DNA of 64,000 bases. It comes from Promethearchaeia archaeon. Its GTDB lineage: Archaea > Asgardarchaeota > Lokiarchaeia > Sigyniarchaeales > SOKP01. Under the pieces are notes generated by a model. That model was not told the origin of the DNA, ran no database searches, and was given only the letters and a program-made list of their open reading frames with translations. Position numbers and translations under genes: made by a program. This document shows positions 22,884 to 34,820 of this stretch, piece by piece (position 1 is the first letter of the stretch; each line of letters starts with the position of its first letter). The stretch covers positions 58,294-122,293 of the forward strand of contig JAWOCD010000090.1 in the NCBI GenBank assembly GCA_046483985.1, written 5' to 3'.

Positions 22884-24125
22884 CTAAAAAATTTCGGATA
22901 ATTCTTGCGGTATCTTTGCCCTCTCATCCATCAGACTAAGAGCATAGACTTGTTCTCCACACCCACAAGGTTTGCCAACGAATAAGTAGTATTTGAACTC
23001 CTTCTTCCACGTACAGACTTTGATATCCTCGATCTCTGCGACTTCCCCACAGACACAATATATCTTATCTTTTTGGGGATAGTTGGGGATGACATCGTCA
23101 ATGTCTTTTGACGTTACTTCAAAATCGCTCTCATCCAACATCTTATTAATTTCGTCTGCTTTATTCTCTTTCAGAGTGGGTACAAAATTTTTAATTTTTC
23201 CATCCTCTGTGCGAATTTTGGTCAACACAATAAAATTGGTTTCTCCGCCTTCACTAATTTCTTGGGAGATCCCCATCTCTGCCTCCTCTTTCAATTGTTC
23301 TGGAATAGGAAATGGTTCTACATCATCGGGATAGTCAAACGTAAACACATATTGATACTTTCCTCTCGTTTTGCGTTGATTAATTAATTTTAAATTCTCA
23401 TAATCTGAGCTATGTAAGACAAATTTAATCAATTGAAGCGGTACTTCCCAATCAAGTAATTTAGTTCTCACATTAGCAAGTACATCGTTTACAAATCCTT
23501 TAATAATCAGGATATCGTCTCTATTCTTGGTATAAAATTCGTCACTGTGGGATCCTTTAAATTTATTCCATTTTTTTACCACATAGCTCCGGAGAAGGTT
23601 TGGAACCATACAGAACAGACAAACAAATGGTAATATGAAGATAGGATCGAGAAAGAACATCAGTATCGTTAATAGGCCAATCACAGGAAGAATTACAATT
23701 ATGCTCAGTCTTTTCATTTTTGTATCGACTGGTTTATCCACACCATGCTCAGCTGCTAAATCCTCTGCATTTTTTTTTAAATTCTCAACGGTGGAGAGAA
23801 TTCGTTTTTCTTCGAATCCCTTTTGTAATAGTTTATCTTCTTCGTTGCCCTTTCCGAACTTTTCTACAAGATCTTTAATCTCCTCTTGATATTCCGAAAT
23901 TTTATCATCTTTATAGATAAAGTCAAATGACTCTTCTGAAAAATAATCAAGAAATCTGGAGATAAATAACTTTTTCTCAATTTCTTCAATTTGCTCTTGG
24001 GTGAGTCCTAATGCGTCTTGAATCATTGCCGCTTGTGATTCGTTTTTAGAACTTTTTTTTTCCGTTTCTTCGTTTATTTCTGTTTTTTCCTTTTTTATTT
24101 CATCTTCTTTCTTCGTATTTTTCAT
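22884..24125 (-). CDS. Hypothetical two-TM membrane protein with C-terminal Cys cluster (zinc-ribbon-like)
   Basis: TM hairpin LSIIVILPVIGLLTILMFFLDPIFILPFVCLFCMV; YCVCG...PCGCG. Confidence 0.7.
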   Translation of the reverse strand: MKNTKKEDEIKKEKTEINEETEKKSSKNESQAAMIQDALGLTQEQIEEIEKKLFISRFLDYFSEESFDFIYKDDKISEYQEEIKDLVEKFGKGNEEDKLLQKGFEEKRILSTVENLKKNAEDLAAEHGVDKPVDTKMKRLSIIVILPVIGLLTILMFFLDPIFILPFVCLFCMVPNLLRSYVVKKWNKFKGSHSDEFYTKNRDDILIIKGFVNDVLANVRTKLLDWEVPLQLIKFVLHSSDYENLKLINQRKTRGKYQYVFTFDYPDDVEPFPIPEQLKEEAEMGISQEISEGGETNFIVLTKIRTEDGKIKNFVPTLKENKADEINKMLDESDFEVTSKDIDDVIPNYPQKDKIYCVCGEVAEIEDIKVCTWKKEFKYYLFVGKPCGCGEQVYALSLMDERAKIPQELSEIF

Positions 24126-25404: not shown

Positions 25405-26244
25405 TTAAACTCTGAGGGTTATCGGTTCTATCCCTGTTTGCTTTCCGAATGAGGGGATAATCCACATATACATACAATACTTAGTATCTTTGTAAAAGGG
25501 ACGGGCAAAATTACTATGCCCTAAACTGCCAGGGAAAAATAAACCTTCTCCATCACTTAAGTCACGGCATACGGACTCTCCATCAACATTTATCATATAT
25601 TGGGAGACGGAATAATTAGGATCATCAATGCACATGATATAGACTTCTGGAAATCCAGGATGGATATGCGGATAGACCTCGGTTCTTCCACTTTCATTTT
25701 CCTCTAAGTTGACACTCGTAATGACCCCTTGTTGTAATGATTTGGGGGGAATATTTGTAAATCCTGCCATGTAATACTCATTTTTAATCGCTGTCCATAC
25801 CGTTCGAAAGGTAGCCATTTTTTCTTCGTTCCCATGTTCCCCTCTGTCGATAAACTTCTCGGCACCGTAATGCGCAACTTGAAAATCGCTTGAACCCAAT
25901 TTATCTATTGAAGAATGTACTAAACAGATTTTATGGATTTGATTGGGTCCAAGACGTCTGGTTAGTTCTAATTCGGTATCTGGGGGAAGGAAAAAGAAGT
26001 CAAAACGTTCTAACTCATATTCCATCATCTTATAGACGATGGTTGCTTCCCCCGACAGTAAACAGCCGCACACTCCCTCTTTTTCCTTCGCTGAAATTTG
26101 TAAATCATCCTCCACATAGAAATATTCCATGTTAATCCCATTCAAAGTTCTCTGAATCTTTTCTTCCGTAGGATCATTTAAATAGTAGGAATTCATCCGA
26201 TCTCGTGAGAGGGGCTCAATTTTTTCTGAATTTGCTTTACTCAT
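25405..26244 (-). CDS. Bicupin protein (IolB/KduI-like isomerase fold)
   Basis: LLSGEATI...FDFFFLPPDT; YPHIHPGFPEVY metal motif; GH near the C-terminus. Confidence 0.65.
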   Translation of the reverse strand: MSKANSEKIEPLSRDRMNSYYLNDPTEEKIQRTLNGINMEYFYVEDDLQISAKEKEGVCGCLLSGEATIVYKMMEYELERFDFFFLPPDTELELTRRLGPNQIHKICLVHSSIDKLGSSDFQVAHYGAEKFIDRGEHGNEEKMATFRTVWTAIKNEYYMAGFTNIPPKSLQQGVITSVNLEENESGRTEVYPHIHPGFPEVYIMCIDDPNYSVSQYMINVDGESVCRDLSDGEGLFFPGSLGHSNFARPFYKDTKYCMYMWIIPSFGKQTGIEPITLRV

Positions 26245-26439: not shown

Positions 26440-27627
26440 TTAAGAGATTTTGTTTTGTATTCTCACTTTCTTTTGTGAATTATCTTCAAAAATGCTCACT
26501 ATAGCATTAATCCCTTTTTGTTTTAACTTCAATTCAATTTCTTTTTCCTCGTTTTGTCTCCATTCATTATATCCGGTAAGGATTGGCTCTGTTTCAAATA
26601 GTCCTCGTTGGAGCCCAGTTAATTTTACGGTTACCCCCTCGAGATTTTCATTTGACATATTTTTTATCGAGAGGATATATTTATTCTCTTTAGCATCAAT
26701 GGAGGTAACACTAAATCGCTTTTCAAATTGCGAATTTGCACCCTCAAATAATCCTGGGGTTTGTGCTTTCCGAGCTGCGAATAAATCCAATTCTTCTTCC
26801 TTTATCTCTTTCATCTTGGCGATGGTTATGGGCACTTCTAACTCTATGGGTTTACCCCTTCTTCGCGGTCTGCCTAGAATTTTTAACGACCATCGGGAAT
26901 AATCGCCATAGCGAAATCCCCATTCTTCTTTTTCCGAAGAGGACCAGAGATAATCATGGCTCGGCTCAGCAATTTCAGGAACTTTAATCAATAAATATCC
27001 TTTCTCCGTATTATCGGTTTTTGCTTTACCTGCAATAGCAGGAGGGAGTTTTTGAACTTGACTGCAATTTTTTCCATATGCTTGACAATGACAGATTAAG
27101 TTGGCACTTTGAAGCAATCTTATTTCAATCTCTCTTAATTCTTCAGAAGTATAATTGATCTTTATCGTTTCGCCGGGTTTAAACACGTCCTTCTTGAGAT
27201 TTATTTCAAGTCCAGAAATGGATAAGGACACTGGATGCGGTTTTTTTTTCTCTTCGGAGGGTTTTGGGAGTATCGCTATTTCGTGTGCTTTTTTTATGGT
27301 AATTGCTTCGTCCGGGTTAATCGGGCTTATTTGTCGTAAAACTAAATGAACCTTATATTCCAAATCCCTTTTCTTAATGGTTGGAACTACATTTGATTTA
27401 ATTAGCATCGGACGGGTTCTAATGTAAGTTCCCGCTTCAAAATGTCCCTTGGGAAAGACTTCTTGTTTGTTAATTTGAAGCTCTTTGTCACAAGGAGGTT
27501 GTGTGATTAAACGGATACCACTCCATAATATGTCTTTGTCCTCCTCAAACTCATATTCCGCTTTAATGCCGAGTTTGTCCCCCACAAACACAGATCCGTT
27601 GTTTAAATCACTTAATTTCAGATTCAT
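26440..27627 (-). CDS. Arrestin/Vps26/SpoOM-like protein with an extra C-terminal Ig-like domain
   Basis: Arrestin-N-like FEAGTY...VVPT...LEYKVHLVL; arrestin-C-like LEINLKKDVFKPGETIKI...IEIRLLQ...IELEVPITI; third beta-rich domain at aa ~303-395. Confidence 0.65.
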   Translation of the reverse strand: MNLKLSDLNNGSVFVGDKLGIKAEYEFEEDKDILWSGIRLITQPPCDKELQINKQEVFPKGHFEAGTYIRTRPMLIKSNVVPTIKKRDLEYKVHLVLRQISPINPDEAITIKKAHEIAILPKPSEEKKKPHPVSLSISGLEINLKKDVFKPGETIKINYTSEELREIEIRLLQSANLICHCQAYGKNCSQVQKLPPAIAGKAKTDNTEKGYLLIKVPEIAEPSHDYLWSSSEKEEWGFRYGDYSRWSLKILGRPRRRGKPIELEVPITIAKMKEIKEEELDLFAARKAQTPGLFEGANSQFEKRFSVTSIDAKENKYILSIKNMSNENLEGVTVKLTGLQRGLFETEPILTGYNEWRQNEEKEIELKLKQKGINAIVSIFEDNSQKKVRIQNKIS

Positions 27628-27791
27628 TTCTCATTAATCCTATGAAAATAGATATTTGATATTGTATAATCTATGATTGATATTATATTTTAGTAATAGT
27701 AATGATAATAATAATAATTTTTTTTCTTATTTCAATAATTATGAGGGAGAATGAAGAAATAATTAAAAAGAATAATAAATTTAAAAAAAAT

Positions 27792-28700
27792 TTATTCTGA
27801 ATGTGCTGAGATAACCACGTCGGCAAATAATTTCATGTCGTTAAGTAGCGTGTTAAGCTTTTCTTGGGAATCCATATCAAACTCGCCGGACTTCATGACA
27901 AGCACGGAAATAATATATTTAAAGATATGCAATTCGATTTCTTGCCCGTCATCGTTCCGACCCTTGAAATCGGCAGAGTCCGACATAAAGATGTTCTCTC
28001 GCACAGTATTACATGCATTAATAAAGTCTCGCAAATCTCCTCTGAGGGTGAGTCCCGAACTAACTCCCTTTACGTTATGAACAATCACATTCCCGGAAAT
28101 ATCTGAGATGATAATCTTGGCGTCTATGTCCTCTAACTTTTCCTCAGCTTTTTCTACATGTTCTTTTAGTTCTGAATAGGAGCTAATAAGAATATCTCGG
28201 AAAATTGTTGCCAGCTTGTCTTGGTTGTAAATTGAGGTCAGATAATACTCAAATTCATAGTCCTTAAACATATCTAAGAATTTTTCTTTTGCCTTTTTCA
28301 CATTTGTATCTAACATTTCTTTCTCATAATCCTTAGTGTCGTACTTATGAAGAAACAGAAAAATCTTGGGTTTCTCATTGATTTTCCTGTGAGTTTTTAA
28401 AATTCCCTCAAAATATTCTTTGGCTTGCTCAAACGAGCTGGGATCATGTAAGTCAACAATAGGTATCAGAATGTCATCTCCTCTGAACAAGTCAGGCTTT
28501 TCAAGATATTCCTGTCTGTACTGTTTTTGACCTCCAAAATCGAAGATTCCGACTTGCAACCCCAGAAATGGATGCCGTCTCGTCTCATATAAAATTGTAG
28601 GACTCAAGTCCTTCGTATCTGTAGGACTTTTGCCAGCAAACGCTACAGAATAAAGAGAAGTCTTTCCACAGCCCGAAAGTCCCACTAGACTAATTTTCAT
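27792..28700 (-). CDS. Rag/Gtr-like small GTPase with C-terminal roadblock/longin-like domain
   Basis: GLSGCGKTS, SPTI, HPFLG, FDFGGQ, LHKYD (His-type G4 as in Rag/Gtr), LTSIY; C-terminal ~120 aa IIISDISGNVI. Confidence 0.85.
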   Translation of the reverse strand: MKISLVGLSGCGKTSLYSVAFAGKSPTDTKDLSPTILYETRRHPFLGLQVGIFDFGGQKQYRQEYLEKPDLFRGDDILIPIVDLHDPSSFEQAKEYFEGILKTHRKINEKPKIFLFLHKYDTKDYEKEMLDTNVKKAKEKFLDMFKDYEFEYYLTSIYNQDKLATIFRDILISSYSELKEHVEKAEEKLEDIDAKIIISDISGNVIVHNVKGVSSGLTLRGDLRDFINACNTVRENIFMSDSADFKGRNDDGQEIELHIFKYIISVLVMKSGEFDMDSQEKLNTLLNDMKLFADVVISAHSE

Positions 28701-28792
28701 TTTTAGTTTGATTTCCTCTTTATATTTTAATATCTATAATAATGTATTTCATTTATATTTTAAATTAATTTTAAATTAAAAAAATTTGATTT

Positions 28793-30262
28793 TTATTTTG
28801 GTCCAAATGATCGTGTCTTACTATAAATCTTACCGTATTCGTCGGAGACCGCTTCCAGCAATACATCGCCTTCTGAATCTTCTGCTTGATAATCAATTTC
28901 GATTGTTTCATACGGAAAGAGTTCCTTTATATTCGTAACCCACGGATTCTTTTCAAACATGTCCTCCAAGGTGACCACTCTGATTTTAACATTCTCTAGG
29001 ATAAATCCCACCGTATTTTGGATGGTAAAATGAATAATATTATCCTCCTCGTCGAATTTCTTACGTACACTTAAGGCCCTTCGTGACTCCAGTATATGTT
29101 TTGTCTTTGTATCCTCCGGTTTTGTTTCCATTCGCTCTTCTTCTTCTTCTTCTTCCATATCCCGTACGATAAAAACCTTTCTCTTTTGGATATTGTATTG
29201 AGAAACTTTTTTTAATTTTGCCAAAAAGAGCACCGAATTGAGGTTAATCTCATTGTAGGGTTTAATAGTCAGATATTCTTTTTCAGCGGCATCTTCGATA
29301 ATTTCCGTTCCAATGCCCGAGCGGGCAAACACGGTGTTTTTTTTTGCTTCGCTCCCGACCGACCCAACGGAAATATCAGCATTTTCGCAGGCCAAATCGG
29401 TACAAAAATTGCAGCTGGAGGATTTATATTTATGTAGGGATTTAATTGAATAGGATTTGACGGGATCATCATCCTCATCGTAATAAACATGGAATTTTCC
29501 CTTATTAATGTCCATTTTCTCGACCTTTTCCAAATCGACCCCATCTTTTTCAAACATGGGATATAGGGACTCCGGAGAAAATGAATCCATACAGAAAAGC
29601 CCTATTTTGAGCACATGTGCCCTCATAAAATAGCGAAGCATCCCCGCGGGGGAATTCATCATTTTATCAACAGCGTTGATATTGCACGGCGTTCCCACGA
29701 AGGCAATAGAACGGTAATCTTCCCGAATCGCTTCCATTAGCGCCTCAACCGTTTGCGAATGGCAGTAAATCGAACCCGCAGCTTTTATGGCATCGTCCTT
29801 GTTGGTTACGATTTGAGCCACGGGATACCATGGATTATCGGGATCTTTCATGGTGACAACGGCCGCATCGATCAATTTTTCATCAAATAGGTAACATAAT
29901 AAGCTTGTCACGGTTCCTCCATCTTGGTAACCGAGTACCTCGGGTATATCCGTATTAGCGACGTAACCGGTATCAAATTCTCCGATCAATTGAACCGGGT
30001 CCGTTATAGTTCTGGGGCATTGATTATAACAAATTCCGCATCCGGTACATTTGCCGACCAACCGTGGTTGTCCTTTAACATGGTCCCATTCTAAGACAGG
30101 ACAAACGGCGGCACACGTTCCGCATTCAGTACAGATCCCCGTTCTGATGACTTCTTTCATAAGTTTTCCATATGAATCTTTTTTACCCTCGAGCTTCTTT
30201 TGAATGTAGTCAAAAGAGTATTCGTATTTTGTTTCGTCTTCTTTTACTTCATTTTCCGTCAT
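28793..30262 (-). CDS. FrhB/FdhB-family (F420-interacting) protein with 2x[4Fe-4S] ferredoxin and an extra C-terminal Ig-like domain
   Basis: CTECGTCAAVCP, CTGCGICYNQCP, QDGGTVT, VGTPC, IGLFCM, CNFCTD, ADISVGSVG; poly-E linker followed by a ~96-aa beta-rich domain. Confidence 0.9.
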   Translation of the reverse strand: MTENEVKEDETKYEYSFDYIQKKLEGKKDSYGKLMKEVIRTGICTECGTCAAVCPVLEWDHVKGQPRLVGKCTGCGICYNQCPRTITDPVQLIGEFDTGYVANTDIPEVLGYQDGGTVTSLLCYLFDEKLIDAAVVTMKDPDNPWYPVAQIVTNKDDAIKAAGSIYCHSQTVEALMEAIREDYRSIAFVGTPCNINAVDKMMNSPAGMLRYFMRAHVLKIGLFCMDSFSPESLYPMFEKDGVDLEKVEKMDINKGKFHVYYDEDDDPVKSYSIKSLHKYKSSSCNFCTDLACENADISVGSVGSEAKKNTVFARSGIGTEIIEDAAEKEYLTIKPYNEINLNSVLFLAKLKKVSQYNIQKRKVFIVRDMEEEEEEERMETKPEDTKTKHILESRRALSVRKKFDEEDNIIHFTIQNTVGFILENVKIRVVTLEDMFEKNPWVTNIKELFPYETIEIDYQAEDSEGDVLLEAVSDEYGKIYSKTRSFGPK

Positions 30263-30490
30263 AATATTTTCTGATTCAATATTTGTTAGATAAATTAAAA
30301 TTAATAATTGATTACTTAATGTAATAAAATCCTCTAAAAAAATCTTTTTCTTTCATCATTATTGAGGGGGATTTTTAAGCATCCGATTCATTTTGTTCTA
30401 TTTCCCTATAATTAACCCCAAAATCCACATATAAGTACAAAAGAAATCCCAATTCGCGAAGAAAAATTAAATTACCTTTCAAAAAAATTG

Positions 30491-32116
30491 TTAAGGAGAT
30501 TTTTGTTGCTCTTCCATTTTCTCTAATCTCATCTGAATGGATTCAATTGCTTTAGTAGCATTAATGTGGACAAGCCGATGAAAGTCCTTCTGTTGTCTTT
30601 TTAAAGTATCCAAGACGAGTTTATCGCCGAATTTCCCGAGAAAGTTAATGATACTCATTTTTACCTTAAAACATTCTTTAGGATTTACATCTAAATAATC
30701 GGCAAGTAATTGTTTGGCTCTGAGAAAGGTTCTTTTATCTCCCTCATCGAGATTTAAATTAAGGCTTTCTTCCCAGTTTTGTTTAAAAATATTATAAATC
30801 GCATCCACTGCGACCTTTTTCAATAACCAATAAGTAGATTTACCTTGAATTATCTGAATAAGGGGCTCTATGGTGTTTTTACTGCCAATTTTACCCAAAG
30901 CGATAATTGCATTTTTTCTGACTTCTAAATTCCGTTCTTTAATTAATTTTAGGAGAGGGTTGATAAATTGTTTCTTGCCTATCTCACCCATCAAATAGGC
31001 AACGCTTTCTTCTAATAAATAATTCCGAGAATTAATGACTTCATGAAAATATGCAAAAGAAGCATCAGAACAATTAAGATATATCTTTTTTACAGCATCC
31101 AAAATATTCCATTTGAAATCTAAATCAATATATTCATAGGTTTCGTCTTCGATGTTAAGCGCATTCAACAGCCGGGGAACACAAGACTCATCGCCTATTT
31201 TTCCTAATACCCTAATCGCCTCTCGACTAACCTCATTGTAGAGATCATCTATAAGGAAAAAGAGTTCTCTGATAATATCTTCATCTTTTATTTTAAGCTT
31301 TCCGATTAAATTGATTGCATTTTTTTTAACCAGAAATTCTCCGTCTTTTAAAATACCCACCAGTTCCTCCTTCAAATCTTCCTCAAAAGTATCAAACACT
31401 AAGAGACATTTATCGTTAAACTCCACATCTTTCTTTTCTAAACAGGTACCGATAAATTTACATAATTCATCTCGCTTGGATAAGAGTTCGGATAAAACTT
31501 CCGAATCTTCTAATACTTGTTCATTTTCATCCTTTAATGTAGGGGGGAGATCAGCCAATAGGGAGCCGATTAGTTCAATGATCGAAATTTTATGGTCCGA
31601 GCTAAAAGATTTATCTCGGATAGAATTCAGTAAAAAGGCAATACATTTTTGTGGATTCAAATCCAAAATACAATTTTTAATAAATTCTTGTATGGCTTTT
31701 GATTTGAATTGTAATTGTTGGATCAGTAATTCCAGTTCCTCTTCCTTCGGATGGATTTTTAATACAGCCTTTAAAGCATCTAACCTGACTTCCAGGTCAA
31801 TTTCCCCATTTTCCAATATCCATTTTAGCGGTTCTAAGGCTTTCTCAGTTTTGAGATTTCCCAATGATTTTGCTGCTTCACGTTTTACATCTTGATTTTT
31901 TTCGGTAATTACTATATCTTCTAAAACATCAAAGCATCTATTTTTTAGTTGGTCTGAGTTGCTGGATAGAAGTCCCAAATATTTAACTGACTTCCTCCTT
32001 AAACTAATATCCCGCTCTTTATCGATAATCTCAACTAATAAATAAACTGTATTATCTAAACCCAGTTTATCTCGTTTTTTATAAATCTCTTCGGGCAATA
32101 ATTTAGTTTTTATCAT
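30491..32116 (-). CDS. HEAT/PBS-lyase repeat protein
   Basis: Repeated VKREAAKSLGNL, VKKNAINLIGKL, VSREAIRVLGKIG, VRKNAIIALGKIG. Confidence 0.9.
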   Translation of the reverse strand: MIKTKLLPEEIYKKRDKLGLDNTVYLLVEIIDKERDISLRRKSVKYLGLLSSNSDQLKNRCFDVLEDIVITEKNQDVKREAAKSLGNLKTEKALEPLKWILENGEIDLEVRLDALKAVLKIHPKEEELELLIQQLQFKSKAIQEFIKNCILDLNPQKCIAFLLNSIRDKSFSSDHKISIIELIGSLLADLPPTLKDENEQVLEDSEVLSELLSKRDELCKFIGTCLEKKDVEFNDKCLLVFDTFEEDLKEELVGILKDGEFLVKKNAINLIGKLKIKDEDIIRELFFLIDDLYNEVSREAIRVLGKIGDESCVPRLLNALNIEDETYEYIDLDFKWNILDAVKKIYLNCSDASFAYFHEVINSRNYLLEESVAYLMGEIGKKQFINPLLKLIKERNLEVRKNAIIALGKIGSKNTIEPLIQIIQGKSTYWLLKKVAVDAIYNIFKQNWEESLNLNLDEGDKRTFLRAKQLLADYLDVNPKECFKVKMSIINFLGKFGDKLVLDTLKRQQKDFHRLVHINATKAIESIQMRLEKMEEQQKSP

Positions 32117-32882: not shown

Positions 32883-34820
32883 ATGCAAAATGTAACAAAT
32901 CATCGGATTGGAGTCTACTGTTGTCAATGAGGAATAAACATTAAAGGCAAAATTGACACCGCAGAATTAGCAGAATATGGGAAATCTTTTGATGAAGTCG
33001 TTATATCCAAGACGCACCCGTTCTTATGCACTGAAAGCGGTCAAAACGAAATAATAGAAGATATTGAGGAGAAAAATCTCACCGCAATTGTTGCAACGGC
33101 TTGAACCCCACGAACCCATGAACCAATTTACAGAGACACAATTTCAAAAACGAATATTAGTCCTTATCATTTTGAATTGGTTAATGTCCGAGAACATTGT
33201 AGTTGGGTCACAGAATCAAGGGAAGAAGCGATGGAAAAGGCAAAAGGATTATTACGAGGCGGTATCGAACGCGTCAAACTTCTAGACATTGTGCCCATAA
33301 GAACGGTGCCTATTGAAAGATCCACATTGGTGGTGGGTGGTGGAATTGCCGGAATGAATGCTGCCTTAGATCTTGCAAATCAAGGAATCAAAGTCTATCT
33401 GGTGGAAAGAAAAACAACAATTGGGGGCCGTATGGCTCAGCTGGACCGCACATTTCCCACGGATGATTGCAGTATCTGAATTTGCGGGCCGAAAATGTTG
33501 GAAGTCAACAGGCATGAAAACATCGAAATTATAAGTTATGCAGAAGTTAAGGAAGTAAGCGGATATGTGGGTAATTACGAAGTTACCGTTGAAAAAAAGC
33601 CGAGATATGTGACAGACGATTGTAATGGATGCGGAGCTTGTGCAGATGTCTGTCCCATCTACACGGAAAACTATTTTGATGAACATTTAGGAGTACGCAA
33701 AACCATTGATATTGCCTTCGGGCAAGCTGTTCCTTTTCTCTATGATATTCATCGGGACTCATGTGTTGAATGTTTTAGTTGTGTGGATGAATGCGAACTG
33801 GATGCGATAGATTTCTCCCAAAAAGCTGAGGATATCCACATAAAGGTGGGATCAATTATTATTGCGACGGGATGGGACATCTATGAACCTTATGGCGAAT
33901 ATGGTTATGGCGAATATGAAAATGTGGTTCATCAAGCCCAATTAGAACGAATGTTAGCCCCAAACGGACCACTAGGAGGTCATGTACATCGGGTTTCGGA
34001 CGAGAAGACGTTGGAGGAAATTGTGTTTATTCAATGTGTGGGAAGTCGGCAAAAAGGAAGGACCTATTGTAGCGGAATCTGTTGCATGTTGGCATTAAAG
34101 AATGCAAAATTACTAAAAGAAGAATTTCCTGAGGCAAATATCACTATTTGCTATATTGATGTGAGAACAAATGAGAAGGGTTTTGAAGAATACTATCAGC
34201 GTGCAAAAGAATCGGGTATTCGTATGATAAGAGGAAAAGTGGGAGATATAAAAGAGGATCCGGAAACAAAGTGCGTAGATATTAGAGTGTACTCATCTTT
34301 AACAGACGAGATCATCCATATTGATGCAGATTTGCTCATTCTTTCTTCGGCCGTCTTACCTTCTAATGGCACCGAACAAATTGCTTCAGTATTAAATTTG
34401 GATGTCGATACGAACGGATTTTTAACCGAATCGCACTTTGGTTTAATGCCCCAAGAAACTAAAACAAAAGGGATATTTATTGCAGGGTTTGCTCAAGGCC
34501 CAAAAAATATTGCTTATTCGGTTTCCCAAGCACGAGCTGCTGCAAGTAAAGTGGCTGAATTAACGTCTCCAGGAGAAATTGATTTAGAACTTATTATCGC
34601 AGAAATAGATGAGGAACATTGTATTGGGTGTGGCAGATGCGAGCGGGAATGCCCGAATAGTGCAATCAGTATTGAGGTTGATAGCGCAATAGTTGATGAA
34701 ATAAACTGTGAGGGGTGCGGTATCTGTGCTACATGTTGTCCAACTGAAGCTATTGATATTCGCTACTTTAGAGATGAGCAATTATATGCGCAAATTGAAG
34801 GAATAATTGGAGGGGTTTAA
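32883..34820 (+). CDS. hdrA: Heterodisulfide reductase subunit A, selenoprotein with three in-frame UGA (Sec) codons, ~645 aa
   Basis: One frame from ATG 32883 (alternative in-frame GTG 32871 after GAGGTG) to TAA 34820, with TGA at 32928 (YCCQ-U-GINI), 33102 (ATA-U-TPRTHE) and 33477 (DDCSI-U-ICGPK). Each matches Cys in the paralogue at 39303 (ICHCGINI, VASCSPRTHE, LDCSLCILAPK). Confidence 0.95.

Follow-up and report, generated by a model that had tools for sequence, protein, structure and literature searches.

A Rag/Gtr-type GTPase gene of Asgard archaea is inherited together with genes for an FrhB-type flavoprotein and an arrestin-fold protein that share a tail domain

The stretch of DNA analyzed here, called the window throughout, comprises 64,000 nucleotides from a Promethearchaeia archaeon (assembly GCA_046483985.1, contig JAWOCD010000090.1, positions 58,294 to 122,293 of the forward strand) and is part of contig C85 in a 4.06-Mb Lokiarchaeia-type Asgard genome of about 35% G+C. 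A preliminary description of the window had pointed to four minus-strand genes, coding for a HEAT-repeat protein, an FrhB-family protein with an extra tail, a GTPase of the Rag/Gtr type and an arrestin-like protein of three domains, and had suggested that their products form one redox-linked signaling module or membrane coat. The four open reading frames lie where they had been placed, with intergenic gaps of 228 base pairs (bp) between the HEAT and FrhB genes, 92 bp between the FrhB and GTPase genes and 164 bp between the GTPase and arrestin genes. We use IGT as a label for a small beta-sandwich tail domain shared by the FrhB protein, the arrestin-fold protein and a longin protein encoded elsewhere in the genome. 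The features on which the text relies are the following (aa, amino acids; HMM, hidden Markov model):

30491-32116, minus strand: HEAT-repeat protein, 541 aa.
28793-30262, minus strand: FrhB-IGT, 489 aa, an Fe-S flavoprotein resembling FpoF, in which two [4Fe-4S] ferredoxin motifs and the N and C domains of FrhB precede a private C-terminal tail (Pfam, NCBIfam).
28796..29116, minus strand: IGT tail domain of FrhB, aa 383-489 (hhalign; combined HMM E 6.9e-30).
27792-28700, minus strand: Rag/Gtr-type GTPase, 302 aa, with a G domain (aa 1-172) and a predicted roadblock-like C-terminal domain (aa 173-302).
26440-27627, minus strand: arrestin-fold protein with IGT tail, 395 aa, with two predicted arrestin lobes (aa 1-272).
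26443..26757, minus strand: IGT tail domain of the arrestin-fold protein, aa 291-395 (hhalign; combined HMM E 5.5e-32).
G000:C41:93725-94765 (= L044:5722-6762), minus strand, outside the window: P0170, the longin-IGT protein, 346 residues, third IGT carrier.

Three of the four genes, those for FrhB-IGT, the GTPase and arrestin-IGT (hereafter the trio), are inherited as one unit across several Asgard classes. In a set of 49 loci fetched from arrestin-bearing genomes of the class and from other classes, 46 of them centered on the arrestin gene, the gap between the FrhB-IGT and GTPase genes is 200 bp or less in 33 of the 35 loci that hold both, with order and strand kept. The GTPase and arrestin genes lie on the same strand in every locus that holds both (38/38); they are separated by 300 bp or less in 17 and overlap in 3. 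Order and strand of the whole trio are maintained in Lokiarchaeia (including a Helarchaeota-labelled genome), Jordarchaeia, Freyarchaeia and a Heimdall-labelled genome. In this window the trio genes abut or overlap, as they do in one genus of its family, in all distant Lokiarchaeia families and in genomes that carry the labels Jordarchaeales, Freyarchaeum deiterrae, Helarchaeota and Heimdallarchaeota, and the overlapping genes of the other lineages argue for a probable operon there. The idea of a four-gene set conserved across Asgards thus stands for the FrhB, Rag and arrestin genes and fails for the HEAT gene, which is confined to one family.

The members of the trio also go missing together. 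In family f2 (10 genomes, two of them single-contig) neither arrestin nor any IGT domain was found, and the three f2 genomes tested gave no Rag orthologue. Genome G037 (99% complete) yielded no arrestin and no IGT match, its Rag matches being at the level of paralogues only. The same holds for arrestin and FrhB-IGT in G009 (99% complete) and G053 (92%), where Rag matches are again paralogue-level (82-91 bits) and a single IGT match is kept; in G053 this match is of the longin type, judging from the length of the open frame. Since the lone match of G053 is longin-type and the trio is missing from both genomes, the longin protein can apparently work without the trio. In three further arrestin-less genomes, G005, G003 and G036, the Rag gene is damaged, either split into two frames or deprived of its first 52 residues. 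These broken orthologues are located at G005:C62:3212-4148, G036:C159:867-1800 and G003:C13:16431-17189, and might reflect gene decay or sequencing error. The pattern of joint absence, which includes three well-assembled genomes without the trio, fits a mutual dependence of the trio members.

A second line of evidence comes from the tails. Pairwise BLASTP relates the FrhB tail to the third domain of the arrestin-like protein weakly (E 0.001), and the two were therefore compared as profiles. With hhalign they match at 96.8% (E 2.7e-10), as against 20% or less for controls with every other domain of the three proteins, which substantiates the homology proposed from the sequence of the window. 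The conserved core of the domain consists of an N-x-S/T...G stretch, an F-E pair and a W/P-x-E stretch, and the IGT of the arrestin-fold protein resembles GH2-type Ig-like glycosidase domains in structure (Z about 10). When a profile of 44 such domains was searched against 1.84 billion cluster representatives, 130 proteins were recovered, 79 of them at E 1e-10 or better. Short fragments aside, their lengths fall mainly at about 340-357, 380-406 and 480-510 residues, with one 641-residue fusion. The window genome contains exactly three copies (arrestin, FrhB and P0170), and three is the usual count per genome among 121 genomes of the class. By these profile searches, the IGT domain is essentially private to three families, namely this FrhB, this arrestin and the longin protein of about 346 aa.

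The gene for the third carrier, P0170, which the preliminary description did not include, is unlinked to the trio in the window genome, where it is flanked by a GNAT acetyltransferase gene and a TnpB-like fragment. Its family's IGT domain matches the FrhB tail at 99.0% and the arrestin tail at 97.6% in hhalign comparisons. In the structural model of P0170 the N-terminal half is a longin domain, followed by long helices; in structural comparison it scores highest against folliculin (FLCN, Z 10.4), then a Lokiarchaeal longin (Z 10.0), Sec22 (Z 9.8) and a GATOR1 chain (Z 9.7), with a BLOC-3 chain and FNIP2 also among the best and other longins at Z 8.3 to 9.8. The longin fold is clear from the model, and a specific kinship to GTPase-activating proteins (GAPs) of Rags is only a lead that the ranking of model matches suggests. 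The longin domains of folliculin and NPRL2 act on Rags. A basic loop that includes R92, R96 and G98 is invariant in the family; R92 and R96, poorly modelled with their loop, may correspond to the catalytic arginine that longin-domain Rag GAPs carry on a loop. In two relatives (G022 and G011) the longin-IGT gene is the last of an HdrA/MvhD-MvhG-MvhA ([NiFe] hydrogenase) operon. Outside the window's family, longin-IGT and CBS-domain genes lie upstream of FrhB-IGT, inside the cluster, and in one genome longin-IGT and four CBS domains are fused in a single protein.

The central gene of the trio codes for a GTPase whose Rag/Gtr character had been read from its motifs and is upheld by profile searches. 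Pfam assigns it to PF04670 (Gtr1_RagA; E 4.7e-25, 88.8 bits against a cut-off of 22), Arf and Ras scoring 36.2 and 35.4 bits. A search of the PDB with an orthologue profile returns 8yl2 ("GTP-binding protein") at 2e-27, Gtr1/RagA at about 1e-20 to 1e-21 and RagC/Gtr2, then Arf/Arl at 1e-8. All four motifs (GLSGCGKTS as an intact P-loop, DFGGQ of the DxxGQ form, HKYD as a G4 motif of the form HKxD, and TSIY as a G5 motif of the form TSI[WY]) are present and are invariant or nearly so across 31 orthologues, in which D54, G56, G57, Q58, H118, K119, D121, T155, S156, I157 and Y158 do not vary; between Asgard classes the orthologues are 52-83% identical. The gene is the sole orthologue in its genome (578 bits, as against 97 or less for some 20 paralogues). 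The C-terminal domain is predicted to be of the roadblock type, with indirect support only: the profile alignment extends into Gtr2 up to aa 229, and language-model features lead toward the C-terminal parts of Gtr1/RagA (score 0.85, a lead only).

In FrhB-IGT, Pfam recognizes Fer4 and the FrhB families PF04422 and PF04432, with FrhB_FdhB_N at 3.2e-20 and FrhB_FdhB_C at 5.3e-42 over aa 35-337, and finds no family in the tail. Twelve cysteines and the motifs QDGG and GTPC are invariant in 31 orthologues; the cysteines suffice for the clusters of two ferredoxin motifs and for that of FrhB, and the protein is predicted to be intact for FAD and three Fe-S clusters. The layout is that of FpoF, and the scores fall below every NCBIfam equivalog cut-off. 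As with the GTPase, the genome holds no second orthologue: FrhB-IGT scores 714 bits, and paralogues reach 220 at most. FpoF can act as an F420H2:ferredoxin oxidoreductase. Genes for F420 biosynthesis are present in the window genome, namely cofE in two copies, cofH (458 bits, cut-off 374) and cofD. Adjoining the trio and divergent from it lie an HdrA(Sec) gene and then two more FrhB paralogues, the latter being a known kind of part, and the same neighbors recur in distant lineages. The link to redox metabolism that the preliminary description had proposed is thus borne out at the level of genomic context, by the HdrA/FrhB neighbors here, by the CBS proteins of other lineages and by the hydrogenase operon that ends in longin-IGT. 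The hdrA gene itself (33177-34820, plus strand) contains an in-frame TGA at 33477-33479, within FPTDDCSI-TGA-ICGPK, so that the reading frames 33177-33479 and 33495-34820 make up one gene; the TGA falls where HdrA proteins have cysteine or selenocysteine.

The arrestin-like protein gets no family name from Pfam or NCBIfam: Arrestin_C reaches 14.5 bits where the cut-off is 27.7, and neither Vps26 nor Arrestin_N gave a match in the Pfam scan. Structure is more telling. An AlphaFold2 model built with 36 homologues (predicted local distance difference test, pLDDT, 83; predicted template modelling score, pTM, 0.73) comprises three beta-sandwiches and a disordered linker at residues 274-302. The top Foldseek matches are VPS26C, VPS26, ARRD-6, TXNIP, arrestins and Rgp1 (E 7e-10 to 1e-7), and an exhaustive structural scan with VIA-align gives Spo0M (Z 14.4), Vps26 (Z 13.5 over 241 residues), Rgp1 (Z 13.0), ARRD-6 (Z 12.6 over 258 residues) and arrestin (Z 12.5 over 240). 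Model, Foldseek and VIA-align thus agree that the first two domains are, as modelled, two tandem arrestin-fold lobes, in keeping with the fold originally assigned to positions 26440..27627; the fold is not specifically that of Vps26, because the top structural match is the bacterial Spo0M. Cysteines 46, 179, 181 and 188 are invariant in two alignments, which suggests a metal or thiol site. The gene is single-copy in the window genome and in 95 of 121 genomes of the class.

Two neighbors of the arrestin gene may be mentioned. An unannotated 279-aa gene lies 195 bp downstream of it (25405-26244, minus strand), and follows arrestin in many loci of the window's family; the product is bicupin-like, with atlas feature matches to cupin clusters at 0.93-0.94 and a KduI-like structure match (TM 0.72). 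A gene for an Arf-like small GTPase of about 197 aa occurs near the arrestin gene in 26 of 40 loci from the class (for example, L001:1472-2077), and the only match to it in the window genome is on another contig (C50:89331-89888, 48% identity).

The fourth protein of the window stands apart. Its Pfam matches are to HEAT_2 (1.7e-33), HEAT_PBS and other generic repeat families, and its PDB matches are alphaRep proteins only, which are artificial proteins modelled on the PBS-type HEAT repeat; Vps35, adaptin and COPI gave no match to it in Pfam or PDB searches. The HEAT gene is found upstream of FrhB-IGT and on the same strand in 16 loci, all from one family, and is adjacent to it in 8. No orthologue was found in five trio-bearing genomes, one from another genus and four from other families, where matches remain at the repeat level (47 bits or less), and no IGT domain was found on the protein. 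Three genomes without the trio likewise yielded no HEAT gene. Genome G059 was considered as a case of HEAT without trio and set aside as uninformative, its HEAT gene lying about 1.4 kb from the contig end on the side where the trio is expected. Being confined to one family, lacking an IGT tail and consisting of generic PBS-type repeats, the HEAT protein is excluded from the core; it is possibly a lineage-limited accessory. Within the functional set of four proteins first envisaged, synteny, the IGT domain and joint absence tie FrhB and the arrestin-fold protein to the Rag-like GTPase and leave the HEAT protein out.

In Freyarchaeia and Jordarchaeia a gene for a gingipain-type Peptidase_C25 of 670-870 aa lies directly upstream of FrhB-IGT (L041:11058-13079, L046:10137-12749, L042:9638-12187), the Jordarchaeia copies (L042, L046) carrying additional GIFT/DUF4350-like domains. 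The peptidase was rejected as a core member on account of its absence from Lokiarchaeia loci. Within the window, positions 22884-24125 (minus strand) code for a conserved 413-aa protein without a Pfam family; its C-terminus is rich in Cys, a single strongly hydrophobic segment spans aa 140-158, and the gene is syntenic with a CoA-ligase gene in the window's family. Of the words sampled, two salt-lake metatranscriptome runs contain 12% and 7%.

On balance, and with moderate conviction, we favor the view that these genes specify an Asgard-wide module built around one Rag/Gtr GTPase, whose partners carry a common docking tail and are tied to redox or energy enzymes. One could envision the IGT tail as a common docking piece that would bring each carrier to the same platform, most likely a dimer of the GTPase. 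The longin protein would regulate the nucleotide state of the GTPase, as a GAP or as an exchange factor for guanine nucleotides (GEF); FrhB-IGT would report or exploit the redox state of F420 and ferredoxin; and the arrestin-fold protein, with its four-cysteine site, could serve as adaptor or output. In the window's family the HEAT protein might be an added scaffold, its position being taken in other lineages by CBS proteins or the C25 peptidase. It is tempting to go further and see here a forerunner of Rag nutrient signaling, in which an Fe-S flavoenzyme docked on the GTPase by way of a private ear domain directly reads the redox state of the F420/ferredoxin pools, the folliculin-like longin protein sets the nucleotide, the cysteine-bearing arrestin relays the signal and, in this lineage, the HEAT protein provides an added scaffold; we regard this fuller version as possible but doubtful.

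Several points weigh against the module as we picture it. Most genomes of the window's family carry 0.9-9 kb of unrelated genes between GTPase and arrestin, including a divergent HAD hydrolase and a 3-methyladenine glycosylase, and the arrestin gene therefore need not be co-transcribed with its partners. In the window genome itself separate transcripts are possible: a run of 7-8 T stands within 5 to 12 bases downstream of each stop codon of the HEAT, FrhB and GTPase genes, and an AT-rich TATA-like sequence precedes each start, signals that prove little at about 35% G+C. The related genomes are not independent, so that the counts given above overstate the support, and the assemblies are incomplete. 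All loci have a single Rag gene per module, and eukaryotic Rags form a heterodimer; from the gene content a homodimer is possible. For F420 use by FrhB-IGT, which is unproven, the cof genes supply only the precondition. Finally, binding among the members, the roadblock fold of the GTPase tail and the metal site of the arrestin-fold protein are what we infer, and a complex prediction for arrestin, FrhB tail and GTPase, with alignments as input, reached ipSAE values of 0.21 and 0.20 against a mark of 0.32, which count neither for nor against binding.

The main rival account places the set in the service of electron-bifurcating Hdr/Mvh/FrhB complexes, whose assembly, placement or turnover would be under the control of the GTPase and of the arrestin and longin proteins; the IGT domain would dock to these complexes and not to the GTPase. 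That HdrA-MvhD-FrhB clusters adjoin the trio in the window and in distant lineages speaks for such an accessory role, as do the place of longin-IGT at the close of an HdrA/MvhD and [NiFe] hydrogenase operon in G022 and G011 and the fact that one IGT carrier is itself a redox enzyme. However, the constant neighbor of both tagged genes is the GTPase and not an Hdr gene, and G009 and G053 keep one IGT match without FrhB-IGT, Rag or arrestin. To our knowledge, moreover, the GTPases that act as metallocenter chaperones (HypB, UreG, CooC) are of the SIMIBI class and not Rag-type. We judge this account unlikely, though serious.

Far less can be said for the membrane coat of the preliminary description, in which a HEAT solenoid, a Vps26-like protein and a GTPase would form a retromer-like or AP/COPI-like assembly with the tails as appendages. 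In its favor, the best fold matches of the arrestin protein include VPS26C and VPS26, the HEAT gene is adjacent here and in half of the family loci and was not found in the three trio-less genomes, and the tails follow disordered linkers in the manner of ear domains. Yet the best fold match is Spo0M. For the putative solenoid no orthologue was found in the five genomes of other lineages that have the trio, it is without an IGT tail, and Pfam and PDB searches did not link it to Vps35, adaptin or COPI. Hydrophobic segments are missing from all four proteins (the highest Kyte-Doolittle mean over 19 residues is 1.26 or less), and no Vps29-like gene was noticed in the cluster. A coat is thus very improbable and the claim was dropped. 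To the notion that local Asgard synteny alone holds these genes together, with no common function, we give hardly any credence: flanking blocks (CoA ligase, hyp413, hyp127) are syntenic within the family too and unrelated genes often separate Rag from arrestin, but the flanks are lost outside the family while the trio is kept across classes with overlapping genes, its members are missing together, and a domain private to cluster members would not be expected by chance.

If the module around the GTPase is real, its closest analogy is the eukaryotic Rag/Gtr system with its regulators (FLCN-FNIP; GATOR1/SEACIT NPRL2-NPRL3; Ragulator/EGO). Both have a Rag/Gtr-type GTPase with a C-terminal domain in the roadblock position; the inherited set includes a longin protein whose best folds are folliculin, the Lokiarchaeal longin and the GATOR1 chain; and energy-sensing CBS proteins belong to the cluster in other Asgard lineages. 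In contrast with the eukaryotic system, each Asgard module has one Rag gene and no TOR kinase context, and its partners, an Fe-S flavoenzyme and an arrestin-fold protein among them, share a private beta-sandwich tail that is absent from known eukaryotic Rag partners. The arrestin-fold protein has the two-lobed beta-sandwich (Z 12-14) of Vps26/VPS26C, the alpha-arrestins including TXNIP, Rgp1 and Spo0M, but differs from them in its sub-threshold Pfam score, extra IGT domain, four invariant cysteines and lack of a Vps35 or Vps29 partner. TXNIP offers a precedent for cysteine-based redox coupling on an arrestin fold, and Rgp1 one for the presence of such a fold in a GTPase regulator. FrhB-IGT likewise keeps the ferredoxin and FrhB N/C order, the cluster cysteines and the flavin motifs of F420-dependent FpoF/FrhB flavoproteins, but it carries the IGT tail, scores below the equivalog cut-offs and has no adjacent hydrogenase, Fpo or Fdh partner.

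Several of the parts were already known. Rag-like GTPases with roadblock domains have been described in Asgards (Tran et al. 2024, PMC10933270), and our GTPase belongs to the same class of GTPase-roadblock fusions and to the family of the RagGtr clade (Vargova et al., 10.1101/2024.02.28.582541); FrhB and arrestin are named in neither paper. Homologues of arrestin and Vps26 from Asgards are also on record (PMC10307638; 10.1101/2025.11.06.686947). In MK-D1, GTPase genes are generally not in operons with regulators (PMC10933270), whereas the orthologue studied here has constant neighbors across classes. A literature search of limited coverage found no published description of the trio, of the IGT domain or of the longin link.

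Asgard genomes encode small GTPases by the dozen, with partners and roles still to be found, and gene order rarely helps in pairing them with partners (PMC10933270). The module described here is an exception, in that one Rag-type GTPase comes with fixed candidate partners marked by a rare domain and open to direct assays. If the redox link is true, a Rag switch would have been tied to energy metabolism before TOR signaling and lysosomes existed, which would bear on the origin of eukaryotic nutrient sensing.

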